A DNA stretch of 64,000 nt from Escherichia coli (lineage in GTDB: Bacteria > Pseudomonadota > Gammaproteobacteria > Enterobacterales > Enterobacteriaceae), in assembly GCF_024502345.1 (NCBI RefSeq), contig NZ_JALDNN010000001.1. One strand, written 5' to 3'. The stretch's first letter is position 1; every line of letters starts with the position of its first letter. Positions 3,563 through 50,315 of this stretch are shown here, piece by piece. The notes beneath the pieces are model-generated. The model saw only the letters and a program-made list of their open reading frames with translations, was not told where the DNA came from and searched no databases. Both the position numbers and the translations under genes were made by a program.

Positions 3563-6500
3563 TTATCCTTTAAAGCAACGGCGGATCACCACAAAGAACA
3601 CCGGTACGAAGAAGATTGCCAGCAACGTTGCAGAGACCATTCCTCCCATTACCCCGATACCCACAGCGTTCTGCGCGCCACTGCCGGCACCGTTACTGAT
3701 AGCCAGCGGTAATACGCCGAGAATAAAGGCGAGAGAGGTCATCAGGATAGGACGCAGACGCATACGTACTGCCATTAGTGTCGCTTCAACAACACCTTTA
3801 CCCTCTTTCTCCATGAGATCTTTAGCGAACTCAACAATCAAAATAGCGTTTTTGGCCGACAAGCCAATTGTCGTTAGCAAGCCCACCATAAAGTAGACGT
3901 CATTTTTTTGATTAAAGAGTGTCGCCGCCAGCAGCACGCCGACAATCCCTAACGGCACGACCAACATAACCGAGACAGGAATTGACCAGCTTTCATAGAG
4001 TGCAGCAAGGCACAGGAAAACAACCACAAAGGAAATTGCTACCAGAGCGGGAGCCTGGTTTCCCGATAAGCGTTCCTGATACGACATACCCGTCCAGTCA
4101 TAACCAATGCCCGCAGGTAATTTTGACGCAAGGTTTTCCATCAACGCCATGGCATCGCCGGAACTGGTTCCTGGCGCGGCTTCCCCCTGAATCTCCATTG
4201 ACGGCAGACCGTTGTAGCGTTCCAGTCGCGGAGAGCCATACACCCAATGTGAAGTGGTAAAGGCAGAGAATGGCACCATTTCGCCGTTGGCGCTGCGGAC
4301 ATAAAGTTTATCGACATCTTCTGGCAGCATACGGAATTTGGCATCCGCCTGAACATACACCTTTTTCACGCGACCACGGTCGATGAAGTCGTTAACGTAA
4401 GTCCCACCCAGCGCCGTTGAAATGGTCTGATTGATGTCAGAAAGTGAAACACCTAATGCCTGCGCCTTTTCCTGGTCAACTTCCAGTTTAAACTGCGCGG
4501 TGTCTTCCAGGCCATTAGGACGCACGCTGACTAAGCTGGCAGGATGTTGCGCCGCCATACCAAGCAACTGGTTACGGGCCTGGGTTAGGGCATCGTGACC
4601 CAGCCCAGCCTGATCAATTAACTCAAAGTCGAAACCCGTTGCCGTGCCCAGTTCAACAATGGCTGGCATATTGAATGGAATGACAAAACCGTCGCGGATC
4701 TTGCCCAACTCCATTTTGGCACGATGGATTACCGCTTCCGCACTGTTTTCGTCACCACTACGCTCTTCCCACGGTTTCAGACTGACGAAGGCCATACCGG
4801 CGTTTTGTGCCTGGCCGCTGAAGCTAAAGCCGTTAACCGTAAAGACACTTTCAACGTTTGCTTTCTCGTTCTTCAGATAGTAATCCGTCACTTGATCCAA
4901 CACTTTTTGCGTCCGCTCTTGCGTCGCGCCAGCGGGTAACTGAATCATGGTCAGAAAGACACCCTGATCCTCTTCAGGTAAGAAGGAAGACGGAAGACGT
5001 AAAAACAACACCACCATTCCTGCAACAATCAGCGCATAGATCAGTAAATATCGTCCTGTGGAACCGAGGATTTTGCCGACGCTGTTGGTGTAGTGGTTAA
5101 CGCTATGATCGAAGGTGGTATTAAACCAGCCGAAGAAACCGCCCTTATTTTCGTGATGCTCAGCAGAGACGGGTTTAAGCAGCGTTGCACATAACGCAGG
5201 GGTAAGAATCAATGCCACCAGAACAGAAAGCGCCATTGCCGAAACGATGGTGATAGAGAACTGGCGATAAATTGCCCCAGTAGAACCGCCGAAGAATGCC
5301 ATCGGAATAAATACCGCTGACAGCACCATCGCGATACCCACCAGTGCGCCCTGAATTTGCGACATTGATTTTTCCGTCGCTTCTTTTGGCGGGAGCTTAT
5401 CCTCCATCATCACGCGCTCGACGTTCTCCACCACCACTATCGCATCATCGACGAGCAGCCCGATGGCAAGCACCATCCCGAACATCGTTAGTGTGTTGAT
5501 GGAGTAACCAAAAGCGGCGAGGATGGCAAACGTCCCTAACAACACCACGGGTACCGCAATGGTGGGGATCAGCGTTGCTCGCATATTCTGCAAGAACAGA
5601 TACATCACCAGGAACACCAGCATAATAGCTTCGAACAGTGTTTTTACCACTTCGTGAATAGAAAGCTGGACGAATGGCGTGGTGTCATAAGGGTAGAGAA
5701 CCTTCATTCCCTGCGGGAAGAATGGCTGTAATTCCGCCAGTTTTGCCTTAATGGCTTTCGCGGTATCGAGAGCATTCGCGCCGGTTGCCAGCTTAATCCC
5801 CAGGCCCGCCGCCGGTTTTCCGTTGATACGAGCGATAACGTTATAGTTTTCACCGCCAAGTTCAACCCGTGCGACATCTTTCAGGCGTACCACCGAGCCG
5901 TCACTGTTTACGCGCAGGGTCACTTTGCCGAATTCTTCCGGATTTTTTAACCGCGTTTGAGCAATAATCGAGGCATTCAACTGTTGCCCTGGTAACGCTG
6001 GCGTTCCGCCCAACTGTCCGGCAGCGATCTGATCGTTCTGTACCTTCAACTGGTTAATCACATCAACCGGTGTCAGTTTATATTTGTTTAGCAGATCGGC
6101 GTCCAGCCAGATACGCATCGCATACTGTGCGCCGAAAAGCTGTACGTCACCGACGCCATTCAGACGGCTAAGCGTATCTTTAACGTTAGAGGCCACATAG
6201 TCCGAGATATCGTCCTGTGTGGTGTCTGGGTTATCAGAGACAAAGCCCGCCACCATCAAATAGCTGCTACTGGACTTTTCAACACTGATCCCCTGCTGCT
6301 GAACCTCCTGCGGCAGCAACGGCGTGGCGAGCTGGAGTTTGTTCTGCACCTGCACTTGCGCGATATCAGGATCGGTCCCGGACTGGAAGGTAAGGGTAAT
6401 TGTCACGCTACCGGCGGAATCGCTGGTGGAGGACATATACATCAGGTTATCGATACCATTCATATTCTGTTCGATAACCTGCGTCACCGTATCCTGCACG

Positions 6501-6667
6501 GTCTGCGCATCAGCACCTGGATAGTTTGCCGAAACAGAAACCGCAGGCGGTGCAATGGTTGGATACTGAGCGACGGGCAATTGTAGGATCGCCAGTGCGC
6601 CCGCCATCATCAGAATAATGGCCAGCACCCATGCAAATATCGGTCGTCGAATAAAAAAGTTTGCCAT
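3563..6667 (-). CDS. acrF: RND multidrug efflux pump inner-membrane transporter AcrF
   Basis: 1034-aa [39 protein letters not shown]... typical AcrB/AcrF family; follows acrE. Confidence 0.95.
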
Positions 6668-6678
6668 GTCAGATTACC

Positions 6679-7836
6679 TTACTTCGATGCAGTATCTGCG
6701 GGGGTATCGGTAGTGGCTTTAACCTGCTCTCCCGGACGCGCTTTTTGCAGGCCGCTGACAATGACTTGATCGCCAGATTTCAGACCTTCGCTAATCAACC
6801 ATTTATCGCCAATCGCCTGACTGGCAACGACAGGGCGCGCTTCCACCTGACTTTTATCGTTAACAATCAGCACGGTTGCATCACCACGCGGTGTGCGGCT
6901 AACGCCTTGTTGCGGGATAAGAATGGCGTCAGGTTGGACGCCTTCATCAATCCGTGCACGCACAAACATACCCGGCAAAAGCGTATGTTGCGGGTTAGGG
7001 AAGACAGCACGTAGGGTTATGGAGCCGGTGCTTTCATCAACGGTCACATCAGAGAATTGCAGCGTACCTTTCAGGGGATAGGTTTGACCGTTTTCCATGA
7101 CCAACTCTACGTTGCTGGTGGCGTTTTCCTTATGCAAATTTCCTTGCTCTACGGATTGCTTCAGCCTCATAAAATCGTTGCTGGATTGGGTCACATCAAC
7201 GTAGATAGGATCGAGCTGCTGGACAGTCGCCAGTTCAGTCGTTTGCCCATTAGTGACAAGAGCGCCTTCGGTCACGGTCGATTTGCCGATACGTCCGCTA
7301 ATTGGCGCAGTCACTTTGGTATAAGCGAGATTGATGCGAGCGCTTTCGACTGTGGCTTTTGCGGCAATCACGGCGGCATCGGCCTGGCGAGCATCAGCAA
7401 TGGCCTGGTCGTACTCCTGCTGGCTGATGTATTTCGTACCCACGAGCGGAACGTAACGTTTTACCGTCAAATGCGCGATGGCGGCGGCGGCTTCACTTTT
7501 CGCCAGTTCGCCTTTCGCGCTGTCATAATTTGCCTGATAGGTCGCGGGATCGATCTGGTACAGGGACTGGCCTGCTTGTACATCGCTGCCTTCAGTGAAA
7601 TTACGATTCAGTACGATCCCGCTAACCTGTGGGCGAACTTCGGCTATACGGTAAGCATTGGTGCGGCCTGGTAATTCAGTCTTAACTTCTAACGGGGCCG
7701 TTTTCACAATATGAACGGTAACCTGCGGTTCACCGACGTGAGCTTTCTCTTCTCCCTTATCGTTACAACCGGCGATTAAAGCCGCGGAGATCAGAATAAA
7801 GGAGGGCAGGAGGAAAAACCTGGCATGTTTCGTCAT
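6679..7836 (-). CDS. acrE: RND efflux pump periplasmic adaptor (membrane fusion protein) AcrE
   Basis: 385-aa ORF with lipoprotein signal MTKHARFFLLPSFILISAALIAGC; 11 bp upstream of acrF. Confidence 0.95.
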   Translation of the reverse strand: MTKHARFFLLPSFILISAALIAGCNDKGEEKAHVGEPQVTVHIVKTAPLEVKTELPGRTNAYRIAEVRPQVSGIVLNRNFTEGSDVQAGQSLYQIDPATYQANYDSAKGELAKSEAAAAIAHLTVKRYVPLVGTKYISQQEYDQAIADARQADAAVIAAKATVESARINLAYTKVTAPISGRIGKSTVTEGALVTNGQTTELATVQQLDPIYVDVTQSSNDFMRLKQSVEQGNLHKENATSNVELVMENGQTYPLKGTLQFSDVTVDESTGSITLRAVFPNPQHTLLPGMFVRARIDEGVQPDAILIPQQGVSRTPRGDATVLIVNDKSQVEARPVVASQAIGDKWLISEGLKSGDQVIVSGLQKARPGEQVKATTDTPADTASK

Positions 7837-8258
7837 TACTATTCCTCAAAAAACCAAAAGCGCGTTATTTACCCAGAAAGGCAACGCGTTAACTCGCAGA
7901 AAGAAAAATACAGTTCGCTATCCTACAAATTATCATTCGTCGATGTAAGGAATAGTTATGAATACTGGCGTCTCAAGGCACATAAACACAAAAAAAGATT
8001 AATATTCTACTGTTTTATTTTGACGCGGGTTGAAAGAGGCAGAATTAAAACCTCGTAAATTGAAATATATATTCATGTGGCGAATGTATTTTAGGTAAAT
8101 AATATATATTATTTATTTGACGATTTATAGCAACTCAATGTTACCCTCTCGTATAAATACACATTAGATGATAGATTAACCTTCGCTATTTTCTCACCCT
8201 GTGTCGAATATATTTATTTCCTGAATAATTAATCATGGCAAAAAGAACCAAAGCCGAA

Positions 8259-8267
8259 GCTCTGAAG
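8259..8267. repeat. Left 9-bp target-site duplication GCTCTGAAG of the IS903-group insertion
   Basis: Identical 9-mer immediately flanks both IS ends (8259-8267 and 9325-9333). Confidence 0.85.
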
Positions 8268-9324
8268 GGCTTTGTTGAATAAATCGAACTTTTGCTGAGT
8301 TGAAGGATCAGATCACGTATCTTCCCGACAACGCAGACCGTTCCGTGGCAAAGCAAAAGTTCAAAATCACCAACTGGCCCACCTACAATAAAGCCCTCAT
8401 CAACCGTGGCTCCATAACTTTCTGGCTGGATGATGAAGCTATTCAGGCCTGGTATGAGTCAGCAACACCTTCTTCACGAGGCAGACCTCAGCGCTATTCT
8501 GACCTTGCCATCACGACTGTGCTGGTCATTAAACGCGTATTCAGGCTGACCCTGCGCGCTGCGCAGGGCTTTATTGATTCCATTTTTTCTCTGATGAACG
8601 TTCCGCTACGCTGCCCGGATTACAGCTGTGTCAGCAGGCGGGCAAAGTCGGTTAATGTCAGTTTCAAAACGCCCACCCGGGGTGAAATCGCACACCTGGT
8701 AATTGATTCCACCGGGCTGAAGGTCTTCGGTGAAGGCGAGTGGAAAGTCAAAAAGCATGGCCAGGAACGCCGCCGTATCTGGCGTAAGCTGCATCTCGCC
8801 GTTGACAGTAAAACACATGAAATCATCTGCGCTGACCTGTCGCTGAACAACGTTACGGACTCAGAGGCCTTCCCCGGGTTAATCCGGCAAACCCACCGGA
8901 AAATCAGGTCAGCCGCCGCCGATGGCGCTTACGATACCCGGCTATGTCACGATGAACTGCGGCGTAAGAAAATCAGCGCGCTTATCCCTCCCCGAAAAGG
9001 TGCGGGTTACTGGCCCGGTGAATATGCAGACCGTAACCGTGCAGTGGCTAATCAGCGAATGACCGGGAGTAATGCGCGGTGGAAATGGACAACAGATTAC
9101 AACCGTCGCTCGATAGCGGAAACGGCGATGTACCGGGTAAAACAGCTGTTCGGGGGTTCACTGACACTGCGTGACTACGATGGTCAGGTTGCAGAGGCTA
9201 TGGCCCTGGTACGAGCGCTGAACAAAATGACGAAAGCAGGTATGCCTGAAAGCGTGCGTATTGCCTGAAAACACAACCCGCTACGGGGGAGACTTACCCG
9301 AAATCTGATTTATTCAACAAAGCC
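8268..9324 (+). mobile_element. IS903-group (IS5 family) insertion sequence, 1057 bp
   Basis: 18-bp terminal inverted repeats GGCTTTGTTGAATAAATC (8268-8285) and reverse complement (9307-9324); single transposase ORF; 9-bp direct target duplication; length and repeat sizes match IS903/IS102-type elements. Confidence 0.85.
8300..9268 (+). CDS. IS903-group DDE transposase
   Basis: 322-aa ORF (TTG start in track) MKDQITYLPDNADRSVAKQKFKITNWPTYNKALINRGSITFWLDDEAIQAWY...; recognised as IS5-family/IS903-group transposase. Confidence 0.85.
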   Translation: MKDQITYLPDNADRSVAKQKFKITNWPTYNKALINRGSITFWLDDEAIQAWYESATPSSRGRPQRYSDLAITTVLVIKRVFRLTLRAAQGFIDSIFSLMNVPLRCPDYSCVSRRAKSVNVSFKTPTRGEIAHLVIDSTGLKVFGEGEWKVKKHGQERRRIWRKLHLAVDSKTHEIICADLSLNNVTDSEAFPGLIRQTHRKIRSAAADGAYDTRLCHDELRRKKISALIPPRKGAGYWPGEYADRNRAVANQRMTGSNARWKWTTDYNRRSIAETAMYRVKQLFGGSLTLRDYDGQVAEAMALVRALNKMTKAGMPESVRIA

Positions 9325-9333
9325 GCTCTGAAG
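9325..9333. repeat. Right 9-bp target-site duplication GCTCTGAAG
   Basis: Direct repeat of 8259-8267 flanking the IS. Confidence 0.85.
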
Positions 9334-9965
9334 ACCCGGCAAGAACTGATTGAAACTGCCATCGCCCAGTTTGCGCAACATGGCGTAAGCAAGACGACGC
9401 TCAACGACATTGCCGATGCCGCTAACGTTACGCGTGGCGCTATCTACTGGCACTTCGAAAACAAGACTCAACTGTTTAATGAGATGTGGTTGCAACAGCC
9501 TTCATTGCGGGAGTTAATCCAGGAACACTTGACGGCTGGATTAGAGCATGACCCGTTTCAACAATTGCGTGAAAAATTGATTGTCGGCTTGCAATATATT
9601 GCCAAAATTCCCCGCCAGCAGGCGTTGCTGAAAATCTTATATCACAAATGTGAATTTAATGATGAGATGCTGGCCGAGGGAGTGATACGCGAAAAGATGG
9701 GCTTTAATCCGCAGACTCTCCGCGAAGTATTGCAGGCGTGTCAGCAACAAGGTTGTGTAGCAAATAACCTCGATTTAGATGTTGTGATGATTATTATTGA
9801 TGGTGCCTTCAGCGGAATTGTTCAAAACTGGTTAATGAATATGGCGGGTTATGATCTTTATAAACAAACCCCCGCTCTGGTCGATAACGTATTAAGAATG
9901 TTCATGCCAGATGAAAACATAACGAAATTAATTCATCAAACGAATGAATTAAGTGTCATGTAAAT

Positions 9966-10145
9966 TCACATTCTGTCCTGAAAATTCAGTTCGTCACAGT
10001 TAACCAGTTTTAGTGGATTAACTGAGTTCATATTACGGCATTTGTCTGTTTCTGTTGTCAGCAGTTCAATCCACTGCATCAGTAAAGTATCAAACAGAAA
10101 AACGAAGACAGCGAAAACGACGAGCCACCAATACTTGCGAATCAT
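9966..10145 (-). CDS. yhdU: Small membrane protein YhdU
   Basis: ORF containing MIRKYWWLVVFAVFVFLFDTLLMQWIELL...; conserved position between acrS and yhdJ. Confidence 0.75.
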   Translation of the reverse strand: MIRKYWWLVVFAVFVFLFDTLLMQWIELLTTETDKCRNMNSVNPLKLVNCDELNFQDRM

Positions 10146-10228
10146 TACCTGAGCCTGTGCATGTTTAACCAAGTCTGGCAGGAAATATACACGAAATGAA
10201 TAATCTGAAAACCAGGCTTACACTTCCT

Positions 10229-11113
10229 TTACTTTGCAATGAGATCGGGGTCAACTTCGCTTAACCGGCTTCGTTTTGACAGGTTGCCGGTCTTTCTTTT
10301 TTTCACTTTCGCCAGTTCTTCCGCAGAGTAATGCGACGCGACATCCAGCCGTCGAAGCCCCATTTTGATGTACTCGCTGTTGATCTCAATACCAATGAAT
10401 TTTCGCCCGCTGGAGACGGCTACGGCACCGGTAGTAAAGCTACCGGCAAACGGGTCGAGAACGATATCGCCTGGGTTGGAAGAGGCGAGAATAATGCGTT
10501 TCAGTAAGGCTTCCGGTTTTTGCGTCGGGTGGTTTTCATATTCATCCATCAAATAACGCACGCGCGGAAAATCCCAGACGTTACCCGGTACTTTTTGATG
10601 ATTGTAAGGCTGTGGAGGATTTTTGCGATAATCGATCAACGCGCGCTGCGATCCGGTTTTGGCTTCTACCAGAATAGCATCACCGTTGAACGTGTAGTTC
10701 TTTGCGTCTTTCACCATCATCAGGATGGGTTCATACATGGAACCGTAGTGTTTTTTCGCCTGCACTCCAGAACTGTCATATGACCAGACGATGCGACTTT
10801 TGATGGTAAAAAGCTTGCGGCACTGGAGATCGATAAAGGGCATGTTTTCCGTACTGTTCATGATGTACATGCTGCCCTGCTTTTTCAGAACGCGGTGGCA
10901 CTCTGCAATCACTTCAAACAGCCAGTCGATAAACAGATCTTCTTTCCAGGCTTCGATCAGACCATCAAAATTTTTACCGATGTTATACGGTGGGTCGGCA
11001 AAGATCAGATCGACGCTTTCAGTAGGTAGCTTTTTAAGTTCGGCAAGGGCATCACCGTGAATAATGGTCTTAGCTTCATTACCAAACCGGGTCGGTTCAC
11101 ATCCTGTTCTCAT
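10229..11113 (-). CDS. yhdJ: Orphan N6-adenine DNA methyltransferase YhdJ
   Basis: 296-aa ORF with methyltransferase motifs FADPPY and DPFAGSFTTG; likely start at MRTGCEP. Confidence 0.9.
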   Translation of the reverse strand: MRTGCEPTRFGNEAKTIIHGDALAELKKLPTESVDLIFADPPYNIGKNFDGLIEAWKEDLFIDWLFEVIAECHRVLKKQGSMYIMNSTENMPFIDLQCRKLFTIKSRIVWSYDSSGVQAKKHYGSMYEPILMMVKDAKNYTFNGDAILVEAKTGSQRALIDYRKNPPQPYNHQKVPGNVWDFPRVRYLMDEYENHPTQKPEALLKRIILASSNPGDIVLDPFAGSFTTGAVAVSSGRKFIGIEINSEYIKMGLRRLDVASHYSAEELAKVKKRKTGNLSKRSRLSEVDPDLIAK

Positions 11114-11140
11114 GGTCACTCCCTTTGTGACACCTATAAA

Positions 11141-11180
11141 AAAGGCGCTTCCCCATGCCGAGTAGCGCCTTTTTAATCAA
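11141..11180 (-). terminator. Bidirectional rho-independent terminator (ancestral fis terminator)
   Basis: aaaaaaggcgcttccccatgccgagtagcgccttttt: GC stem flanked by A6 and T5 runs, immediately downstream of the left copy of the fis 3'-end repeat. Confidence 0.6.
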
Positions 11181-11198
11181 GCATTTAGCTAACCTGAA

Positions 11199-11215
11199 TT
11201 AGTTCATGCCGTATT
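11199..11215. repeat. Left copy of 17-bp direct repeat TTAGTTCATGCCGTATT (duplicate of fis 3' terminus; att-like)
   Basis: Exact 17/17 identity with 13069-13085, which is the true 3' end of fis including its stop codon. Confidence 0.9.
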
Positions 11216-11382
11216 GTAAAATACAGAGTCATTATACGTAATTTATTATCACTCTAGATAATTTGTATTCATCATAAATAATTGATGCGGAAAGAGATAT
11301 TTATTTTTTATTGGCTCGCATTGTATCATCAGTTATCAGTTACTCCCTGCATACAGTTGTCAAAAAGGTTGTCATTAACTCT

Positions 11383-11481
11383 ATGGCCGAAAATAAACTC
11401 TCAGATGTTCAATTGCGTGCGTTAACCCGCAAAGTCATCGAAAAACCTTTTGATGTTGCTGACGGTGGCCAAGTTGGGTGA
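11383..11481 (+). pseudogene. Putative integrase N-terminal (arm-binding domain) remnant, 32 codons then stop
   Basis: MAENKLSDVQLRALTRKVIEKPFDVADGGQVG* resembles the KLTD..R..KP....DGGG N-terminal motif of tyrosine integrases; followed by a hairpin plus T7 run at about 11570-11600. Confidence 0.35.
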
Positions 11482-11610
11482 AAACCTGCTATGCAGCTAC
11501 CGCATAAGGGTAGTGGATTCCGCTGAAATCTTGCCGTTCATCCGATCATAACATCACAACAGTTGTTGCCCATTACCCTGGCGAATGCCGGGGCTTTTTT
11601 TATTTTCAAA

Positions 11611-11923
11611 GTGACGCCTAGGTGTCATTAATTTATAAGGTGTCATGGTAGGTGTCATTGTTCTCAAGCCATAACCCGCAAGGGTTGCGACATTACTAAT
11701 GACACCTATGACACCTATGACAGCATTTTTAAAGAAAATAACGACCACTGTAATAATGTAACAGTGGTCGTTATACTTTATAGAAATGGGTGTCATGGTG
11801 TCACAGGTGTCATTCATTACAGTATCTTGTTTGTATTTTTCTTTAATAATCAGCGTGTTTCCCGCTATGACACCTAATGACACCTTTCCAACATAACGCC
11901 GTCATGGTGACATTAGGTGTCAT
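11611..11923. repeat. Iteron-like array: at least 11 copies of the 9-mer AGGTGTCAT / ATGACACCT in both orientations
   Basis: Forward copies at 11620, 11638, 11650, 11789, 11797 (variant), 11805, 11915; reverse copies at 11699, 11708, 11867, 11877; arranged as two similar modules (three forward then two reverse) about 169 bp apart. Confidence 0.8.
11739..11773. repeat. Perfect hairpin/palindrome with 13-bp arms (TAACGACCACTGT / ACAGTGGTCGTTA) and 9-nt AT-rich loop, central to the 9-mer array
   Basis: Read directly from sequence. Confidence 0.8.
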
Positions 11924-12274
11924 CGCCATCTGCTGCCAAAAAAGTCAAGGTACTTCCGAGGGGGGTACAGCCTGCGGGGGCATTGGTCCCGCGTAATTCG
12001 CGTTGTGCGTGCCCCTACAAAACTCACTTTATGATTACGTCAAGTAAATCAATCATTTATGTGAATCCTATCAAAGCACTGGCACCATACGTGCGCGATT
12101 GCAAAATAAAGCGAACACGTTTTACACACGCTGAATTGTAAAGATGTGTAAATATCGATTACGCCGGATTATGCCGGGTTATTTGCAAGTATTCAGGGTT
12201 ATAAGTTACTGATTTTACATTAAAAAGCTCACATTGTGGCTATTGTGTTCGGTCTGGTTACTGTATATCTTTAA

Positions 12275-12991
12275 GTCATTCCAGGCGATTTAGCTGGCCT
12301 GGCGCTGGCAGGTTATCAGATTTACCGCCATTGGGCTGGTGTGAAGGCTTTCTTTGGCGGAGTGGGTGAAGGCATCAAATCCGGGCTGGAACCGCTTAGC
12401 GACGCTCTGAGCCGCCTTTATGAACGCATGGGGCCGCTGAAACCTGTCATTGATGGTGTGGGTGCTGCGGTTAAGACGGTTTTCAACTGGTTCACGTCAT
12501 TGACCGAGCCGGTCAAGTACAGTGGCGAGGAACTGGATAAGGCCGGTAAAATGGGGATGACGTTCGGTAAGACCCTGGCGGCTGGCATCGAGCTTGTGAC
12601 CGCACCGATCACGTTCCTGATTGATAAGATTCTGTGGGTGTCTGACAACATCGGCAACCTGACCAACAAGGCACTGGAGTTTAAAAACGCCGTGTCTGAT
12701 GTTGCTGGTGGTGCGTGGCAGAAAACCAAAGATTTCTTTACCGCACCATTCCGCGACGATGTACAGCAGCCAGCAGCAACCACTGCCTCTGGTGCTGCCC
12801 TGCCGTCACCTGCACTGGCCAACCGCTCTGGTGGCACTACGGTGCATAGCAACGACCAGTACCACATCAGCGTGAAGGCAGAACCTGGTATGAATGAAGA
12901 TGCATTAGCCCGGAAGGTGATACAGCAACTACGACAGCAACAAGCAGTAAGGCAGCGAAGCATGATGATAGATGGCGCGCAAACACCATAA
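12275..12991 (+). pseudogene. 5'-truncated phage tail tape-measure-like protein, C-terminal fragment
   Basis: Open frame from 12275 (stop at 12272 upstream) encodes ...LAGLALAGYQIYRHWAGVKAFFGGVGEGIKSGLEPLSDALSRLYERMGPLKPVIDGVGAAVKTVFNWF...VHSNDQYHISVKAEPGMNEDALARKVIQQLRQQQ; Gly/Ala-rich segments and C-terminal tail typical of tape-measure proteins; no plausible start or RBS for a full gene. Confidence 0.4.
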
Positions 12992-13068
12992 GGGTTGTCA
13001 GTACGGTTGCAACAAAAAGTAAAGGGACTGAAATAGCCCCTTTAATTTCATGCCGTTACAGCTTGACT

Positions 13069-13085
13069 TTAGTTCATGCCGTATT
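13069..13085. repeat. Right copy of 17-bp direct repeat TTAGTTCATGCCGTATT (native fis 3' end)
   Basis: Encodes the last codons ...YGMN* of fis on the minus strand. Confidence 0.9.
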
Positions 13086-13365
13086 TTTTCAATTTTTTAC
13101 GCAGCGTACCACGGTTGATGCCCATCATCAGCGCAGCACGGGTCTGGTTACCACGGGTGTATTGCATCACCATGTCCAACAGGGGCTGTTCTACTTCAGC
13201 CAGTACCAGCTCATAGAGGTCATTCACATCCTGACCATTCAGTTGAGCAAAATAGTTCTTCAGTGCCTGTTTAACCGAGTCACGCAGGGGTTTTTGGGTT
13301 ACCTGATCCTGAGAGTTAACGGTAGAAACGGTCAGTACGTCAGAATTTACGCGTTGTTCGAACAT
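13069..13365 (-). CDS. fis: Nucleoid-associated protein Fis
   Basis: 98-aa [101 protein letters not shown], recognised as Fis. Confidence 0.97.
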
Positions 13366-13390
13366 AGTTCTGTCAGCTCTTTATTTCTGT

Positions 13391-14356
13391 TTACGCAAAA
13401 TTTTCGAAGTATGCCTCCAACGCCTCCAGCTGTTCGCTGGCATCCTCAATGGCGTTGAATGTGCGCCGAAACTGGTCATTGGGAGCGTGTTCCTGGAGAT
13501 ACCAGGAAACGTGTTTACGTGCAATTCGGTACCCTTTTGCCGGACCATAAAAGTCATGCAGTTCCCGAACGTGCGCGCAAAGCAAGCGCTTAACCTCTGC
13601 CAAAGGCAGCGGGGGCAGCAACTCCCCAGTGTCCAGATAATGCTGGATTTCCCGAAAGATCCAGGGTCTTCCCTGAGCTGCGCGGCCTATCATCAGGGCA
13701 TCCGCCCCTGTATAGTCGAGCACAGCTCTGGCTTTAAGCGGGTCAGTAATGTCGCCATTCGCGATAACCGGAATGGAAACTTTCTGCTTAACTGCCTGAA
13801 TACTGTCGTACTCAGCTTCTCCATTGAACAAACAGGCGCGTGTACGGCCATGAATGGTCAGAGCCTGAATGCCACAGTCTTCAGCCAGTTGGGCAATCTC
13901 TTCGCAGTTACGGTGTTCCGGCGCCCAGCCAGTGCGAATCTTCAGGGTAACAGGAACGTCCACTGCATTGACGACCTCGGTAAGGATCGATTTAACGACT
14001 TCCGGGTACTGCAAGAGGGCTGAACCTGCGAGCTTGCGATTCACTTTTTTAGCCGGGCAACCCATATTGATATCAATAATCTGGGCACCGCTTTCCACGT
14101 TAATACGTGCTGCATCTGCCATTTCTTTCGGATCGCTACCGGCAATTTGCACGGTGCGAATACCGGGTTCATCAATGTGCACCATCCGTAAACGAGATTT
14201 ATCGCTTTCCCAAACTTGTGGGTTAGAAGACATCATCTCGGATACTGTCAATCCGGCTCCCATCTCGTAGCACAACGTCCGAAAAGGTCTGTCTGTAATG
14301 CCAGCCATGGGCGCTGCGATCAGGCGATTTCTGAGCTGATATTGTCCGATGCGCAT
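13391..14356 (-). CDS. dusB: tRNA-dihydrouridine synthase B
   Basis: 321-aa ORF immediately upstream of fis (dusB-fis operon); TIM-barrel flavoprotein sequence. Confidence 0.93.
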
Positions 14357-14684
14357 GTGTTAAGAAATGACCATACTGTGACTGCAAGGCGGCGTATATT
14401 ACGCATTTTTCGCACGAGATGAAAGGCCAAACTTTGACCAATCCTCTGAGATGGATCAAAGAATTGCATTTAAAATGAGCGTAGCGCGATAATTACTCAT
14501 AAAAATCATCATATTAGAAAATAGTGACTAAAATTCACACTCAAAGAAATTTGAGTAAGTTCTCAATTTTTCTTTATGAATGAAAATTTTGGCACGCAAA
14601 TTTGCGTAAATAATCAGCAAGTTTGCGTGCCTTTTGTGACGTCGCTCGCATTTTGTTGGCTGATGCGAACTTACCTGAAGATGA

Positions 14685-15566
14685 TTAATTCTTACGACCA
14701 GTAATGCGGCACCACTCTTCTTTTTCCACGACCGGGTCCAGAGCGAAGCTGTCGGCATAGGCTTCGCAAACGCTCTCCGCCTGGCTTGCCAGAATACCAG
14801 AAAGGCCCAGTAAGCCGCCTGAAACTGGCAGGACGCTAATTAACGGTGCCAGTTCACGTAACGGGCCTGCGAGGATGTTAGCGACCACCACGTCGGCTTT
14901 CATCGCTTCTGGCTGATCTTTCGGTAAGTAGAGTTCCAGACGCTCAGAAACACCATTACGTTCGGCGTTGTCGCGGCTGGCCTGAATCGCCTGCGGATCG
15001 ATATCAATACCAATGGCTTTTGCTGCACCAAGCTTCAGCGCTGCGATAGCCAGAATGCCGGAACCGCAGCCAAAGTCGATCACCGTTTTACCGGTTAAAT
15101 CGAGGCTGTCGAGCCATTGCAGGCACAAAGATGTGGTTGGATGGGTACCCGTACCAAACGCCAGCCCTGGGTCTAACATCACGTTGACGGCGTTTTCGTC
15201 CGGCACATCACGCCAGCTTGGGCAGATCCACAGTCGTTCACCAAAGCGCATCGGGTGGAAATTATCCATCCATTCGCGCTCCCAGTCTTTATCTTCCAGT
15301 TGTTCGATTTTATGCGCGAAGCCCGCACCGAGCAGCGGATGGTTTTCCAGAATCGCCACCACGTCGTTCATGTCGGTTTCAGCGTCGAACAGACCAATCA
15401 CATCGGTGTCGCCCCACAGGCGCGTTTCGCCCGGCAGCGGCTCAAATACTGGCGTATCGTGGGTATCCTGAAAAGTGATAGAAACGGCACCCGCTTCCAT
15501 CAGCGCATCGCTAAGATCTTCCGCGTTCGCGCCGGTGGTGTTCAGTTTCAGTTGGATCCAAGGCAT
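14685..15566 (-). CDS. prmA: Ribosomal protein L11 methyltransferase
   Basis: 293-aa ORF with SAM-binding motif [13 protein letters not shown]. Confidence 0.93.
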
Positions 15567-15577
15567 GGCAAAACTCT

Positions 15578-17029
15578 TTATTTATCAGTAGTCAAAACGG
15601 TAGCTTGCGGGACGGATGTACCGAAACGGTTTCCGACCAGGAAAGCCAGCAAACTTAGTAGTAACGAGGGCACGATAGGGTGGAAGCCCAGGTACTGAAT
15701 ATTCAGCGTCGCGAGTACGGCATACAGCACGCCGCCAACGATCATCGCACTTAGCGCGCCTTTGGCGTTGGCGCGTTCCCAGTAAAGACCCAGCACCAGC
15801 GGCCACAGGAAAACGGCTTCCAGCCCACCGAAGGCCAGCAAATTCAGCCAGATGATCATTTCTGGCGGCTTCCAGGCGGCAAGCAGCAGCAACGCGCCGA
15901 GAACTAACGTAATTACCGCCGACATCCGCTTCAGACGCGTCTCGTTTTGCATTTGATCCGGACGGATATTCAGATAGAGATCTTTAATGATCGTAGCGGA
16001 ACTTTGTAGCAATTGGGCGTTAATTGTCGACATGATCGCAGCCATAGGTGCAGCCAGAAAGATCCCGGCAGCAAACGGTGGCAGCACTTTTACCATTAAC
16101 GTCGGGATCACCAGATCCGGTACGGTGAGATCGGGGATCACTGCACGACCTAAGGCTCCGGCCAGGTGCATACCGAACATCAGGATTGCGACTACAATCG
16201 TACCGATGATGATCCCCCGGTGTACTGCTTTGCTGTCTTTATAAGAGATACAGCGCACCGCAGTATGCGGCAGGCCTATAACGCCAAAGCACACCAGTAC
16301 CCAGAACGACGTCATAAAGGCAGGCGACAGAATATCGTCAGCGCCTTGTGGCGTAACCAGTTGCGGATCGATGGTTTGCAAGGTCTGTACTGCGTTGCTT
16401 AAGCCGCCAGCGGCATGTACCACGCCAATAAGCAGCACAACGGTGCCAATCAGCATCACAAGCCCTTGCATGGTGTCGTTCAGCACGCTGGCGCGAAAGC
16501 CACCAAAGGCGGTATACAACGCAATGCTGATACCGAAAATCAGCAGCCCGGTTTCATAAGGAATACCCGCCGCGGTTTCCAGCAGGCGCGCGCCGCCGAT
16601 AAACTGCACGGTCATCGCGCCAATAAACGCGACCAGCAAACTCAAACTCGCCAGCCACACCAAAAGACGACTCTGATAGCGGGCAAACAGCATATCGTTC
16701 AGCGTCACTGCATTGTAGCGGCGCGCAAGAATCGCAAACTTCTTGCCGAGAATACCGAGTGAAAGCCAGACTGCAGGAAGCTGAATCATCGCCAGCAATA
16801 CCCAGCCAAGGCCGTATTTGTAAGCAGCTCCAGGCCCGCCGATAAACGAACTGGCACTGATATAAGTCGCGGTGAGCGTCATCGCCAGCACAATACCGCC
16901 CATAGAGCGGCTGCCGAGGAAATACTCATTAAGGAAGGTGCCGGTGCTCCGTTTACGCATCGCATAAACAGAGATACCGAACACCACCACCAGATAGGCG
17001 ACCAGCGGTAGAATTACTTCAAGCTGCAT
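15578..17029 (-). CDS. panF: Sodium/pantothenate symporter
   Basis: ORF with SSS-family membrane topology; likely start [15 protein letters not shown]; overlaps yhdT end as in K-12. Confidence 0.93.
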
Positions 17030-17261
17030 CGTCATCCTCCAGTGGGATATCGCGATAGATAAATTTCACCATCGCCCAGCACAGTCCAATAAACAGCAGC
17101 GGCGTCAGGATGCAGGCCATCTCAAACCAGCGCGGAAAGCCGGTAAAACCGGGGGCAACGCCAGGTAAGTAAGCGGCTACTAACCATACCGCCAGATACA
17201 AAAGGGTCAGCCCCAGCGCCCAGCGCGCCTCTTTATGGGCCTGAACAAAACGAGTGTCCAT
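17019..17261 (-). CDS. yhdT: Small membrane protein YhdT (DUF997)
   Basis: 80-aa ORF overlapping panF start. Confidence 0.8.
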   Translation of the reverse strand: MDTRFVQAHKEARWALGLTLLYLAVWLVAAYLPGVAPGFTGFPRWFEMACILTPLLFIGLCWAMVKFIYRDIPLEDDDAA

Positions 17262-17326
17262 TTTTTGTCCCTGATGGGTGAAGAAAGCGAGGATTGTACC
17301 TTATGGGGGTTGTCGATCCCCAGTAA

Positions 17327-17354
17327 TAAAAAAGGCCGGAAAATCCGGCCTTTT
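17327..17354 (-). terminator. Rho-independent terminator after accC
   Basis: aaaaaaggccggaaaatccggcctttt hairpin with flanking A/T runs. Confidence 0.6.
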
Positions 17355-17369
17355 GACGCTTTTGCAGTC

Positions 17370-18719
17370 TTATTTTTCCTGAAGACCGAGTTTTTTCTCC
17401 AGATAGTGGATGTTAGTGCCACCATGCTGGAAGTTCTCGTCATTCATGATGCGGATCTGCAGATCAACGTTGGTTTTGATACCGTCGATGATCAGCTCCT
17501 GCAGCGCATTCTTCATGCGGGCAATCGCCACGTCACGGTTTTCACCGTAGCAAATCAGCTTACCGATCATTGAGTCATAGTACGGCGGCACGGTGTAGCC
17601 CGCGTAGATATGAGACTCCCAACGCACGCCAAAACCGCCAGGTGCGTGGAAACGGGTGATTTTGCCCGGGCTTGGCAGGAAGGTGTTCGGATCTTCGGCG
17701 TTGATACGACATTCCACCGCATGGCCGCGAACGTGAACTTCTTCTTGCTTGATCGACAGCGGTTGACCGGCAGCGATACGCAGCTGTTCTTTGATCAGGT
17801 CAACGCCGGTGATCATTTCTGTAACCGGGTGTTCTACCTGAATACGGGTGTTCATTTCGATGAAATAGAACTCGCCGTTTTCGAACAGGAACTCGAAAGT
17901 ACCTGCACCGCGATAGCCGATATCAACACACGCTTTAGCGCAACGTTCGCCGATGTAGCGACGCAGTTCCGGGGTAATGCCCGGTGCTGGTGCTTCTTCG
18001 ACCACTTTCTGGTGGCGGCGCTGCATGGAGCAGTCACGTTCCGCCAGATAGATAGCGTTGCCCTGACCGTCAGCCAGTACCTGAATCTCGACGTGGCGAG
18101 GATTTTCCAGGTATTTCTCCATGTAAACCATATCGTTGCTGAAAGCAGCTTTCGCTTCCGCACGGGTCATGGAGATGGATTGTGCCAGTTCAGCGTCGCC
18201 GCGCACTACGCGCATACCGCGACCACCGCCGCCGCCGGAGGCTTTGATAATCACCGGATAACCAATGCGTTTAGCAATGGCACGGTTTTTATCCATATCG
18301 TCGCCCAGCGGGCCGTCAGAACCCGGTACGCAAGGGACGCCCGCTTTTTTCATCGCCGCGATTGCGGATACTTTGTCGCCCATCAGGCGAATGGTTTCTG
18401 CTTTCGGGCCAATGAAGATAAAGCCGGAGCGTTCAACCTGCTCGGCAAAGTTGGCGTTCTCGGAGAGGAAGCCGTAACCCGGATGGATTGCTACTGCGCC
18501 GGTGATTTCAGCGGCGCTGATGATTGCCGGGATGTTCAGATAACTTTTTACTGACGGAGCAGGGCCAATACAGACCGTTTCATCTGCCAGTAATACGTGT
18601 TTTAGATCGCGATCCGCGCTGGAGTGCACAGCGACAGTCTTGATGCCCAGTTCTTTACAGGCACGAAGAATACGCAATGCAATCTCGCCGCGGTTGGCAA
18701 TAACAATTTTATCCAGCAT
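17370..18719 (-). CDS. accC: Biotin carboxylase subunit of acetyl-CoA carboxylase
   Basis: ORF with [33 protein letters not shown]...; true start at internal Met (track ORF extended 13 codons upstream). Confidence 0.97.
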
Positions 18720-18729
18720 GTTCGCCTCG

Positions 18730-19200
18730 TTACTCGATGACGACCAGCGGCTCGTCAAATTCTACCGGTTGTCCACTTTCGACCAGAATTGCTTTCACGG
18801 TACCGGATTTGTCCGCTTCGATCTGGTTCATCATTTTCATGGCTTCAACGATGCACAGGGTATCGCCCACGTTGACTTTCTGACCCACTTCGATGAACGC
18901 TTTTGCGTCCGGGCTTGGGGTGCGGTAGAAAGTACCAACCATCGGGGAACGTACGATGTGACCACTGATTTCCGCTGCTGCTGGCGCTTCCATGGAAGGA
19001 ACGGTCGCCGGAGCGGCTGCGTTAGATTGAGCTGGCTGCTGCATCATTGGTGCAGCGTAAGCTTGTTGCATCACAGGGAAACTTGCGGCAGGAGCTGCAC
19101 GGCTAATGCGTACTGACTCTTCGCCTTCGGAGATTTCCAGTTCGGAGATGCCTGATTCTTCAACCAGCTCGATCAGTTTTTTAATCTTACGAATATCCAT
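18730..19200 (-). CDS. accB: Biotin carboxyl carrier protein
   Basis: 156-aa ORF ending with biotinylation motif ...[41 protein letters not shown]. Confidence 0.97.
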
Positions 19201-20177
19201 GAGTGGGTTCCGTACTCTTTGTTTAGTGTGATTGTGACAGGCGTTTCACCGCCGTCTGTAAAGCGTATGCCCCGACAGCTGTATGCATAGCGATAAATTC
19301 CAGCAGGCCGGGACGCCGGTCTATTTTGCCCCAGAGTGTCAATGTTAGACTTGACGGACATTGTGCAGCGATCTGCTGCTATCCTCCGGCAAAAAACAAA
19401 ATATACCTTCGTTGCGCCAATGTCACCTTTTCCGCAGCGCAAAAACTGCGTCAGGGAGGACGAGGTCGCACATTATAACGATTTCGTAGCAATTGGCAGC
19501 TAAATACTGGTCTTATCAGGGAAGATAATCAACAGCTAACATGTAAATAACCTTCAACACCGTGTAATTTGCAACAAGCCGCACAATTCACGAAATTAGC
19601 GCCATCATCGACGGAACTTCTTATAACGTAAGGTGAAAAGCTGTAAAGCCAGCCCTGCGAAGATGAGGGGCTGCAATGAGATAATCTTCACAGACCACAA
19701 ATAATGTAGGGATGCCAGGATCGCGACAAGATAGACGACATTACGCAGCGGTTGCTGGGGATTACCCAATTTTCACTGCATCGTCTGGATAGATGTGAAT
19801 GCTAAAGCACGCAAAATTAACCGACTGACAATGCACAGCATTAAATACGTCCGAGTGATTAATTTGTAGTCAAATAAAATCAGATTATTCACCTCATGGT
19901 ACCAGAAATAAGTAAGGGGTTAAGCGTAGCGTCGCCCAGGCAAAGCACCATAAACCTAACAGGCGACGGAGGCGTATCAATAATAGCTGTTTAGTGGAGT
20001 ATCAATGCGCATCAATTTATGGTCAGTCGAAATCATGACTTTCCAGTTTGGATTATGTTGTACAACTTCCTGACCAAGGTGTTCGACGAAAGCTGTCCGG
20101 CTAACCGCTTTTCCCGTTAACCGATTGAATAATGATTTCAAAATGAGTTCCCTCTCTTATTATTCCTTGCTAAATGG

Positions 20178-21152
20178 TTAGTTAACCTTCACCAGCGTGC
20201 GACCCTGGGTCTGGTTATTAATGATGGCCTCGGCAAAGTTCGGTGCCTCTGACAGAGATATCTCTTTTGCCGCCTGGGTATAGAATGATTCCGGTAAATC
20301 GGCGACCAGTCGCTGCCAGGCTTGTGCGCGGCGTTCTGGTGGCGTCATTACTGAATCCACCCCTTGCAAACGGACATTACGCAGAATAAATGGCATGACC
20401 GTGGTTGGCAGAGTAAAACCACCCGCCAGACCACAGGCCGCCACGCAGCCGCCGTAATTCATTTGCGCCAGCACTTTTGCCAGCACTTTGTCGCCAACAG
20501 TGTCAATTGCCCCAGCCCAGACTTGTTTTTCCAGAGGACGGGATTCGGCAAACTCATCACGAGGGAGAATACGGCTGGCACCTAAACTTTTCAGATATTC
20601 ATGGGTACTTTCGCGACCGGAAACGGCAACGACCTGATAACCCAACTTATGCAGCAGCGCCACGGCGGTACTGCCGACGCCACCACTGGCACCCGTCACG
20701 ACAATCTCCCCGTCCTGCGGGCGAACACCGGCATCTTCCAGCGCCATTACACACAGCATGGCGGTAAAACCGGCAGTACCGATAATCATTGCTTTACGCG
20801 CGTCCAGCCCTTGCGGCATGGCAACCAGCCAGTCACCTTTCACTCGCGCCTGCTCCGCCAGCCCACCCCAGTGGTTTTCACCAACGCCCCAGCCAGTGAG
20901 TAACACCTCCTGACCGGCATGAAAACGCGGATCTTCGCTGGTGCGTACAGTTCCGGCAAAATCGATCCCAGGAATCATCGGAAAATTACGGATGATTTTT
21001 CCCTTACCGGTAATCGCCAGCGCATCTTTATAGTTCAGGCTCGACCAGTGAACATCGACCGTGACATCGCCCTCCGGCAGGCGACTTTCGTCCAGAGTCT
21101 GTACTGATGCGAGAGTTTTGCCGTCCTGCTGTTCTAAAAGTAACGCCTGCAT
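20178..21152 (-). CDS. acuI: Acrylyl-CoA reductase AcuI (YhdH), MDR-family oxidoreductase
   Basis: 324-aa ORF, zinc-independent MDR/quinone-oxidoreductase-like. Confidence 0.9.
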   Translation of the reverse strand: MQALLLEQQDGKTLASVQTLDESRLPEGDVTVDVHWSSLNYKDALAITGKGKIIRNFPMIPGIDFAGTVRTSEDPRFHAGQEVLLTGWGVGENHWGGLAEQARVKGDWLVAMPQGLDARKAMIIGTAGFTAMLCVMALEDAGVRPQDGEIVVTGASGGVGSTAVALLHKLGYQVVAVSGRESTHEYLKSLGASRILPRDEFAESRPLEKQVWAGAIDTVGDKVLAKVLAQMNYGGCVAACGLAGGFTLPTTVMPFILRNVRLQGVDSVMTPPERRAQAWQRLVADLPESFYTQAAKEISLSEAPNFAEAIINNQTQGRTLVKVN

Positions 21153-32178: not shown

Positions 32179-32253
32179 TTTGACGAGGGCGCGTAATTGC
32201 CCCAATCTCATAGGATAATCGTTGCCAAAGGCCAACGAGCCAGAACATAACCG

Positions 32254-32290
32254 TAGGCCGGATAGGGCGTTCACGCCGCATCCGGCAGCC
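32254..32290. repeat. REP (repetitive extragenic palindromic) element
   Basis: gtaggccggatagggcgttcacgccgcatccggcagcc matches the classic GCCGGATG...GCATCCGGC REP family; intergenic between yhdP and tldD. Confidence 0.75.
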
Positions 32291-32318
32291 GTAAAAAATC
32301 CTCTACTGCAGTAACTAA

Positions 32319-49467: not shown

Positions 49468-49522
49468 GGTGATGCTGCCAACTTACTGATTTAGTGTATG
49501 ATGGTGTTTTTGAGGTGCTCCA

Positions 49523-49798
49523 GTGGCTTCTGTTTCTATCAGCTGTCCCTCCTGTTCAGCTACTGACGGGGTGGTGCGTAACGGCAAAAGCACCGCCGGA
49601 CATCAGCGCTATCTCTGCTCTCACTGCCGTAAAACATGGCAACTGCAGTTCACTTACACCGCTTCTCAACCCGGTACGCACCAGAAAATCATTGATATGG
49701 CCATGAATGGCGTTGGATGCCGGGCAACCGCCCGCATTATGGGCGTTGGCCTCAACACGATTTTCCGCCATTTAAAAAACTCAGGCCGCAGTCGGTAA
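49523..49798 (+). CDS. insA: IS1 protein InsA
   Basis: [91 protein letters not shown]. Confidence 0.95.
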
Positions 49799-50220: not shown

Positions 50221-50315
50221 GTTGGAGTCATTACCAGAAAACCCTGCCATTTTCCCCTACTTTCAATCCTGTGATAGGATGTCACTGATGATGTTAATCA
50301 CACTGACCTTACAGA

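Follow-up and report, generated by a model that had tools for sequence, protein, structure and literature searches.

Within the 64,000-nucleotide stretch of Escherichia coli DNA that was analyzed (the window), fis (13069-13365, minus strand) and yhdJ are separated by an insert bounded by two exact copies of the sequence TTAGTTCATGCCGTATT, one at 11199-11215 (attL) and the other at 13069-13085 (attR), with 1,853 bp between them. The right copy coincides with the final 17 nt of fis, stop codon included. No further copy was present in the window when up to two mismatches were allowed, and 0 of 100 dinucleotide-preserving shuffles of the sequence contained a match to the 17-mer. Since the outer bases differ between the two copies, the repeat is exactly 17 bp long, in agreement with the first-pass annotation of this DNA, which had described a perfect 17-bp direct repeat of the fis terminus. 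The empty site, CTAACCTGAA-core-TTTTCAATTT, is obtained when the sequence left of attL is joined to that right of attR, and because the flanks restore an intact attB in this way, the insertion is attributed to site-specific integration by a tyrosine integrase. The spacing of ~85 bp between fis and yhdJ that the first-pass annotation gave for K-12 was found in an empty-site strain (85 bp), and 5,309 of the 5,426 complete E. coli genomes searched (~98%) have an empty fis site. In other E. coli the same 17-bp site is occupied by larger islands with an intact integrase. These relatives, the prevalence of the empty site and the match of the insert to one such island (below) bear out the earlier proposal of foreign DNA inserted by a tyrosine integrase behind fis and subsequently decayed.

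The insert opens with an AT-rich stretch (11216-11382, plus strand; 27-34% GC), the left att arm together with the DNA upstream of the integrase gene, that is 100% identical to the left end of an intact relative, the 13P484A island; a promoter-like site lies within it at 11255-11282. Beyond it the first-pass annotation had recognized an integrase-like N-terminal remnant, a dense array of 9-mers around a hairpin and a truncated tape-measure-like gene, and all three were confirmed. The integrase remnant (11383-11469, plus strand) holds codons 1-29 of 411, followed by Q-V-G-stop, and is 100% identical to the start of int in the 13P484A island. The 3' 86 bp of a 74-aa hypothetical gene that follows vapE in that island come next (11466-11551, plus strand; positions 15210-15295 of the 13P484A locus), then a terminator-like hairpin with a T-run that closes the replication module (11576-11593, plus strand; terminator scan), a putative replication origin made of iterons (11621-11923), a cos site block (11939-12011) and a non-coding stretch (12012-12290), which maps to 15756-16034 of the 13P484A locus, between cos and the first late gene of the parent island, where no ORF is annotated in intact islands. 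The 3' 30% of a tape-measure gene fills most of the remainder (12293-12991, plus strand; the last 232 codons, 531-762, and the stop), and is 100% identical to positions 20001-20701 of the 13P484A locus. A partial third copy of the repeat core, TTCATGCCGT, does exist close to the right end as had been reported, but at 13047-13056 and 12 bp from attR rather than at 13057-13066 and 2 bp from it; this extra copy is shared by both subfamilies of the parent island described below and is missing from a cfPICI-like island at the fis site.

The insert aligns collinearly with three pieces of the 13P484A island, the identities being 100%, 99.4% and 100%, and neither of its att arms differs in sequence from those of intact islands. 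The parent island, represented by the 13P484A island and by Eco8902.9.fis (loci L001 and L006), measures 9.56 kb, within the ~7-20 kb range of PICIs (phage-inducible chromosomal islands) at fis, and carries, in order, int, alpA, a 93-aa gene, vapE, the 74-aa gene, the iterons of the origin, cos, six late genes and the tape-measure gene. This long form was found in 48 of the 5,426 complete E. coli genomes and the short form in 0. The intact integrase gene has 411 codons (11390-12625 of the 13P484A locus), and its product matches phrog_1 (integrase, 6e-52) and is full length in both parents. AlpA matches Pfam PF05930 over the full model (E = 3.9e-13), the VapE primase/helicase matches phrog_2249 (1e-82) and the tape measure protein matches phrog_28 (3e-103) and TIGR01760 (7e-67). 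The tape measure is the sole phage structural gene of the parents, in which int faces inward and genes for capsid, portal, terminase, sheath and lysis proteins are all absent; without capsid or terminase genes, such an island must depend on helper capsids and a helper terminase. The six late-zone genes had no match in PHROGs, NCBIfam or PADLOC, and the two that were also tried against Pfam (294 aa and 149 aa) had none there. For the 294-aa protein there was likewise no match among PDB sequences or by tblastn against phages, and its AlphaFold model was unusable (2-sequence alignment, mean pLDDT 36).

Comparison with the parent revealed two internal deletions. At junction 1 (11466-11469; string J1, GTTGCTGACGGTGGCCAAGTTGGGTGAAAACC), defined by a three-way junction comparison, 3,737 bp were lost at a 4-bp microhomology (TGGC), removing the rest of int, alpA, the 93-aa gene, vapE and the start of the 74-aa gene. 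At junction 2 (12291-12292; string J2, CGATTTAGCTGGCCTGGCGCTGGCAGG), 3,966 bp were lost at a 2-bp microhomology (TA), and with them went the six small late genes and the first 530 codons of the tape-measure gene. Reading frames are truncated at both junctions, which shows the short form to be derived rather than ancestral. The 827-bp middle segment that was retained consists of 86 bp of the flanking gene and the 766-bp non-coding ori/cos region of the parent, from which ~25 bp are missing on the right. Neither junction was identified in the 5,426 complete genomes, and both were absent from metagenome contigs and from 100,044 species-representative genomes (four scans, all empty).

The putative origin contains 13 copies of the iteron GGTGTCAT, 10 exact and three with one mismatch, and only three exact copies occur in the other 62 kb of the window. 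The iterons form five groups of alternating orientation on either side of a stretch of low GC and, at the center, a 28-nt inverted repeat (11724-11788), a strong palindrome with a DNA fold z of -10.9. The region has a GC content of 31-35% and differs by only three SNPs across the island family. In the intact islands it lies directly 3' of the VapE replicase gene; the window keeps the array and lacks vapE. Two other readings of this DNA were rejected. An RNA element was not supported, as the best Rfam score was 43.5 bits versus a threshold of 150 bits, there was no gathering-level match anywhere in the window, and the sub-threshold matches were to plant-miRNA hairpins and result from the iteron palindrome. 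A 109-aa minus-strand ORF (11554-11883), whose RefSeq relatives are annotated as hypothetical protein, is probably spurious, its "MTP" repeats being translated iterons.

The cos block is 97-99% identical to the corresponding sequence of the Jilinvirus phages ECO1230-10, ep3 and Bas97, its flanks are unrelated, and beyond these 73 bp no nucleotide match of the insert to any phage was found. In ep3 the block has the lysis genes on one side and the gene for the small terminase on the other. It includes a presumed 13-nt cohesive end, GGGGCATTGGTCC (11977-11989), and the two termini of the linear ECOO78 record share precisely these 13 nt as their overlap. Two proteins of the parent island point in the same direction: residues 159-553 of VapE are 65% identical to the ECOO78 primase, the first 158 residues being specific to the island, and the tape measure shares 42-43% identity over its full length with Jilinvirus tape measures. 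Because three modules, cos with its cohesive end, the helicase domain of the replicase and the tape measure, are common to island and phage, Jilinvirus myoviruses are the predicted helper of parent islands of the Eco8902.9.fis type. Iterons are not among the common modules, since GGTGTCAT occurs just once in ECOO78, whose own cluster is made of six copies of GGTGACAA. The helper prediction is the one modestly new lead of this work. No paper on satellites was apparent by title or abstract in the literature on "Jilinvirus", and the paper on the BASEL phage collection, which describes phages of this type as poorly characterized and their lifestyle as "enigmatic", does not contain the word "satellite". 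The prediction is directly testable, as HeidiAbel/Bas97 belongs to that collection. We found no literature explaining a satellite with a full-length, divergent tape measure protein of its own; this gene may indicate interference at the level of the tail or an adaptation for host entry.

The attachment site itself is not new. The first-pass annotation knew of no description of fis as an integration site, but the fis terminus is an already published and well-documented PICI attachment site: Tommasini, Mageeney and Williams (2023, NAR Genom Bioinform 5:lqad036; PMC10111431) catalogued 3,565 "fis GIs" with the consensus block TACGGCATGAACTAA, and cited Schoeniger et al. (2016) for experimental excision from fis in Klebsiella; Kpn47.16.fis is an island whose excision was shown by experiment. 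Their survey, which uses AlpA (Pfam Phage_AlpA) as the signature separating PICIs from prophages, found no prophage among these islands and included five fis islands of <4 kb that lack alpA, none of them from E. coli. Its main text mentions no tape measure genes and helpers other than lambdoid phages are not discussed, and fis is not mentioned as an attachment site by Fillol-Salom et al. (2018). Eco8902.9.fis (CP029369.1/504662-514140), which belongs to the intact parent family of the insert, appears in the supplement of PMC10111431 with the identical 17-bp block. In the window, the 17-bp repeat includes the reverse complement of TACGGCATGAACTAA, the attL block, read as its reverse complement, gives the fis-PICI block aatacggcatgaactaa that was published, and the repeat is flanked by yhdJ and fis. 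Further likenesses to fis PICIs are found in the parent, where alpA adjoins int, the integrase probably belongs to the same clade (54% identity to that of the cfPICI-like fis island), and a replication zone precedes a late zone with the tape-measure gene as a captured late gene of helper type. Unlike these islands, the window holds a doubly deleted shell without an intact int, alpA, replicase or late gene. Since AlpA is missing, alpA having fallen inside deletion 1, the insert is a remnant of a member of the fis PICI group and not a functional member. It is real but ordinary, and by itself has little significance beyond adding one more decayed mobile element to a catalogued hotspot.

In view of this evidence, we regard the insert with high confidence as the fossil of a Gram-negative PICI of the published "fis PICI" group. 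The earlier description of a cryptic integrated element holds insofar as the DNA is foreign, integrated and degraded, but what it derives from is a phage satellite and not a prophage. The tyrosine integrase of a 9.56-kb island inserted the island into the last 17 bp of fis, duplicating the 17-bp block, leaving the fis coding sequence unaltered and placing an island terminator behind it, and the two later deletions then eliminated every complete gene. By analogy with characterized PICIs, Int and AlpA would excise the intact parent, VapE would fire the iteron origin, and a terminase of the Jilinvirus type (ep3, ECO1230-10, ECOO78, Bas97) would cut the mimicked cos and package the island. Excision, origin function, cos cleavage and the identity of the helper are all inferred from sequence. 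The remnant appears to keep the DNA sites for these processes and to encode none of the proteins; with no trans-acting genes left, it is incapable by itself of excision, replication or spread, and is most likely an inert scar.

It was somewhat unexpected, for two random deletions, that the retained middle piece should be almost exactly the non-coding ori/cos region of the parent, and this coincidence leaves room for a different reading, in which the 1.87-kb unit, with attL, attR, ori and cos, is a non-autonomous miniature PICI mobilized by a sibling fis PICI and a Jilinvirus helper. Its relation to a PICI would be that of a MITE to a transposon, or of a defective-interfering genome to its virus, and it would parasitize an element that is itself a parasite of phages. 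The loss of all trans-acting genes with retention of all presumed cis sites, the close match of the 827-bp segment to the ori/cos region and the perfect identity of both att arms to those of intact islands are what such an element should look like. We nevertheless consider it improbable: the empty scans for the two junctions give no sign of spread, ~0.7 kb (38%) of the unit is a useless 3' fragment of the tape-measure gene that would be superfluous in a streamlined element, the junctions resemble ordinary illegitimate recombination, and a unit of 1.87 kb would be packageable only as a long multimer. In a weaker version of the same idea, the chromosomal cos would be cut beside fis by the terminase of an infecting Jilinvirus, and, if so, might act as a decoy against the phage or promote transduction of neighboring genes.

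That the insert is instead what is left of a Jilinvirus-like prophage at fis might be supposed from its Jilinvirus cos site and tape-measure fragment, but this is very improbable and is effectively refuted by the collinear match (99.4-100% identity) to a 9.6-kb island of PICI organization, with an inward-facing int, AlpA and a replicase. The resemblance to the phages is otherwise at the protein level (65% for the C-terminus of VapE, 42-43% for the tape measure), with the nucleotide match confined to the 73-bp cos block, and the published survey recorded no prophage among the fis islands (PMC10111431). Practically no probability attaches to the reverse order of events, in which the 9.6-kb islands descend from the short form and gained their additional genes later. 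This has formal possibility alone in its favor and would leave an int that ends after 29 codons, a 74-aa gene without a start and a tape-measure gene lacking 530 codons, each broken exactly at a junction; the 48 genomes with the long form and none with the short form also speak against it.

As the remnant of a fis PICI, the insert can be compared with other satellites through its parent. Islands of the EcCICFT073 type redirect packaging with Rpp. The parent resembles these cos PICIs (Fillol-Salom et al. 2018 ISME J; 2019 Mol Cell) in having int, alpA, a primase/replicase, an iteron origin and cos, and in lacking terminase genes, with packaging presumed to proceed via the helper cos sequence that is carried. 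It differs in that their helpers are lambdoid siphoviruses and their attachment sites are others, whereas the parent seems to mimic the cos of a small myovirus (Jilinvirus) and has a full-length tape measure and six genes without detectable homologues. An island with the gene set of the capsid-forming cf-PICIs (Alqurainy et al., bioRxiv 10.1101/2022.09.08.507074), namely genes for capsid, protease, portal, HNH and both terminase subunits (small and large), occupies the identical fis site in strain 30821_1#117 (locus L002) and has an integrase related to that of the parent; capsid, protease, portal, connector and terminase genes are all lacking from both parents. With P4 and its helper P2 the parent has in common a size of ~10 kb, integration, a myovirus as helper (a predicted one in the case of the parent), a cos nearly identical to that of the helper, a regulator of the AlpA type and a replicase of the primase-helicase kind, for which the iterons would be the target. 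Unlike P4, it uses a different attachment site, its late-zone genes have no match to Sid, Psu, Delta or Epsilon among PHROGs, its replicase is of the VapE type and resembles the primase of its predicted helper at 65% identity, and it carries a tape-measure gene, which P4 does not.

For the host, the integration exchanged one terminator of fis for another. The native terminator, a GGCGCT...AGCGCC hairpin between A and T runs read from the sequence (11140-11175, minus strand), was missed by a simple terminator scan because its loop is 14 nt; it lies directly 3' of fis in empty-site strains and here is 1.87 kb away from fis, beside yhdJ. In its place stands a terminator-like hairpin with a T-run (13010-13044, minus strand; terminator scan), 25 nt 3' of the fis stop codon, that is also kept in the intact islands. 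Since the island provides both the duplicated 3' end and this replacement terminator, fis remains intact, and the sole present-day effects of the insert are likely to be termination of the dusB-fis transcript at a hairpin supplied by the island and the additional 1.87 kb between fis and yhdJ.

The perfect 17-bp repeat proposed in the first-pass annotation was borne out by direct reading of 10400-13800 and a search of the whole 64-kb window: TTAGTTCATGCCGTATT occurs exactly twice, at 11199-11215 and 13069-13085, with no extra copy in the 64-kb window when up to two mismatches were allowed and no match in any of 100 shuffles. The right copy forms the fis 3' terminus, stop codon included (fis 13069-13365, minus strand), the two copies are 1,853 bp apart and, as their flanking bases differ on both sides, the repeat is exactly 17 bp. 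In the empty-site strain C43(DE3), where fis and yhdJ are 85 bp apart, matching the ~85 bp that the annotation gave for K-12, the single 17-mer lies between CTAACCTGAA and TTTTCAATTT. These are the outer flanks of the left and right window copies, respectively, a geometry that would be expected for conservative site-specific recombination. The third, partial core TTCATGCCGT lies at 13047-13056 rather than at the 13057-13066 originally assigned to it. With a synthetic empty-site query, the fis site was contiguous in 5,309 of 5,426 complete E. coli genomes, and in none of these genomes was the 2.5-kb region spanning the insert present to 80% or more. The 1.85-kb element is therefore truly an insertion, and not an ancestral feature universal in E. 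coli, the alternative that the annotation had named. A terminator-like hairpin with a T-run is located on the minus strand at 13044-13020, 25 nt past the fis stop codon; the native fis terminator now adjoins yhdJ, and the island hairpin stands in its place. A related motif is present in both att arms (AAGGTTGTCATTA at 11361-11377 on the left and AAGGGTTGTCAGTA at 12987-13003 on the right), with another GTCATTA at 11228-11234; the arm motifs could be arm-type integrase or AlpA binding sites, although with so few copies they may be due to chance.

The insert is a decayed copy of a catalogued fis phage-inducible chromosomal island (PICI). Strain 13P484A has a 9,556-bp island between the identical two 17-mers, comprising genes for a tyrosine integrase (int) and AlpA (59 aa; Pfam PF05930, E = 3.9e-13), a 93-aa gene, a VapE primase/helicase gene (562 aa), a 74-aa gene, a 766-bp non-coding region, six small late genes without detectable homologues and, last, a tape measure gene (762 aa). 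The island of WCHEC035148 represents a second subfamily with the same architecture. By blastn, the window aligned to the 13P484A locus in three collinear pieces, 10900-11469 to 10907-11476 (100% identity), 11466-12292 to 15210-16036 (99.4%) and 12291-13400 to 20001-21110 (100%), and the insert thus corresponds to an island of this type minus two internal deletions of 3,737 and 3,966 bp (9,556 - 3,737 - 3,966 = 1,853). The only microhomologies with the parental sequences at the junctions are TGGC and TA, as is typical of illegitimate recombination. Since both deletions truncate genes (what remains is the first 29 codons of int, the last 86 bp of the 74-aa gene and codons 531-762 of the tape measure gene), the 1.85-kb form is derived relative to the 9,556-bp island. 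Tyrosine-integrase integration at fis with later degradation, the mechanism that the annotation had read from this locus, is supported.

The implied novelty of fis as an integration site, in contrast, is not supported, as published work already covers the site, the mechanism and the family of the parent island. Tommasini, Mageeney and Williams (2023, PMC10111431) catalogued "fis GIs" (2,642, later 3,565) in Enterobacterales and a small number of neighbouring families, with a strongly conserved fis-terminus identity block (TACGGCATGAACTAA), and found no prophages at fis. They divided fis PICIs into four zones (an integration zone that includes AlpA, a Bro zone, a replication zone and a late zone in which helper late genes are captured) and noted five fis islands of <4 kb without alpA. 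Excision and replication after mitomycin C were shown earlier for Kpn47.16.fis (Schoeniger et al. 2016, as cited in PMC10111431). Their supplement includes Eco8902.9.fis (CP029369.1/504662-514140), which is the WCHEC035148 island, and its identity block aatacggcatgaactaa is the exact reverse complement of the window 17-mer.

The middle piece of the insert retains a putative replication origin at 11621-11923, with the usual layout of PICI origins. This interval holds 10 exact and three one-mismatch GGTGTCAT iterons, compared with three exact matches elsewhere in the window. The iterons fall into five groups whose orientation alternates, and they surround a stretch with 31-35% GC and an inverted repeat of 28 nt; folded as single-stranded DNA the array gave z = -10.9. 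In intact islands it is directly 3' of the replicase module and nearly invariant across the family. A 109-aa ORF (11554-11883, minus strand; a hypothetical protein in RefSeq relatives, WP_000052065.1) lies wholly over the iterons and is probably not a gene, because its repeated Met-Thr-Pro motifs are translated iterons.

The adjacent 11939-12011 has 97-99% identity to the Jilinvirus phages ECO1230-10, ep3 and HeidiAbel/Bas97, with unrelated flanks. This cos block is flanked by the lysis genes and the small terminase gene in ep3 and is found at the record end, directly after the spanin gene, in Bas97. The linear ECOO78 record both starts and stops within the block, and its two ends share the 13-mer GGGGCATTGGTCC as an overlap, as would be expected of a cohesive end; this 13-mer is intact in the window (11977-11989). 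Residues 159-553 of the parent VapE have 65% identity to the C-terminal part of the ECOO78 primase, and the parent tape measure protein is 42.6% identical over its full length to that of ECOO78 (41.6-43.1% for other Jilinvirus phages); the remaining parent-island proteins had no match in ECOO78. From these similarities, Jilinvirus is the predicted helper of the parent island. The VapE match, together with the lack of GGTGTCAT iterons in ECOO78, which has its own GGTGACAA cluster instead, suggests that the island has a helper-like helicase domain and an origin specificity of its own. The six GGTGACAA copies of ECOO78 (~2250-2750 of its locus), similar to the island iterons yet distinct, lie in the gap that separates the late transcriptional activator gene from the next one and may serve the phage as its own origin or as sites for activator binding. 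According to the BASEL phage collection paper, Jilinvirus phages are small myoviruses that are poorly characterised and whose lifestyle is "enigmatic"; the paper contains no occurrence of "satellite", and by titles and abstracts none of the eight Jilinvirus papers found concerns satellites.

Retention of all presumed cis-acting sites, loss of all trans-acting genes and the close match of the middle piece to the parent non-coding region raise the possibility of a non-autonomous, mobilisable mini-element, but we consider this reading very improbable. The ori/cos segment occurs in 48 complete E. coli genomes, in all 48 of which it is separated from the int end, so that the first junction is absent; the second is likewise absent among complete E. 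coli genomes, and neither was found in metagenome contigs or 100,044 species-representative genomes. Moreover, 38% of the remnant is a functionless tape-measure fragment. On these grounds we conclude that the remnant is, with little doubt, a one-off product of decay.

The only modestly new point concerns the intact relatives and lies outside the window, namely that Jilinvirus is their predicted helper and that these satellites encode a tape measure. Late genes and the full-length tape measure gene (762 aa) occupy 16062-20701 of the 13P484A locus and 9820-14398 of the WCHEC035148 locus. The six small late genes (294, 104, 54, 149, 69 and 68 aa) had no match in PHROGs, NCBIfam or PADLOC, nor did the 294- and 149-aa genes in Pfam or the 294-aa gene in PDB sequences and phage genomes. 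"Tape" is absent from the main text of PMC10111431 and the part of its supplement examined, and no PICI-encoded tape measure was apparent by title or abstract among the matches listed for PICI and tape measure. A 15.8-kb cfPICI-like island is present at the identical fis site in isolate 30821_1#117 (4219-20016 of its locus), with genes for int, an HTH protein, an Icd-like protein, primase, major capsid, protease, portal, HNH and the small and large terminase. Its attR reads ...TATCAGTTCATGCCGTATT, and on integration fis therefore acquired a TGA stop codon in place of TAA; the attL/attR mismatch pattern confines the crossover to GTTCATGCCGTA.

Other features were observed in the window. At ~32229-32292 it lacks ~210-270 bp of a repeat-containing yhdP-tldD intergenic stretch relative to C43(DE3), the two blast segments overlapping by 64 bp. 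A canonical 768-bp IS1 (49468-50235; ends GGTGATGCTGCCAACTTACTGAT and GGTAATGACTCCAACTTATTGAT) takes the place of 318 bp of the C43(DE3) nanR-dcuC intergenic region, among them the initial 19 nt of the gene annotated as dcuC, which points to an IS1 insertion with an adjacent deletion. A 1,057-bp IS903-like element (IS5 family) at 8268-9324, with terminal inverted repeats beginning GGCTTTGTTGAATAAATC, a 9-bp target duplication (GCTCTGAAG) and one 322-aa transposase ORF (8300-9268; NF033579, 6e-107), interrupts acrS (envR) ~25-33 nt from its 5' end, leaving only a truncated ORF at 9484-9963. AcrS represses the acrEF efflux operon, which the insertion could derepress or activate.
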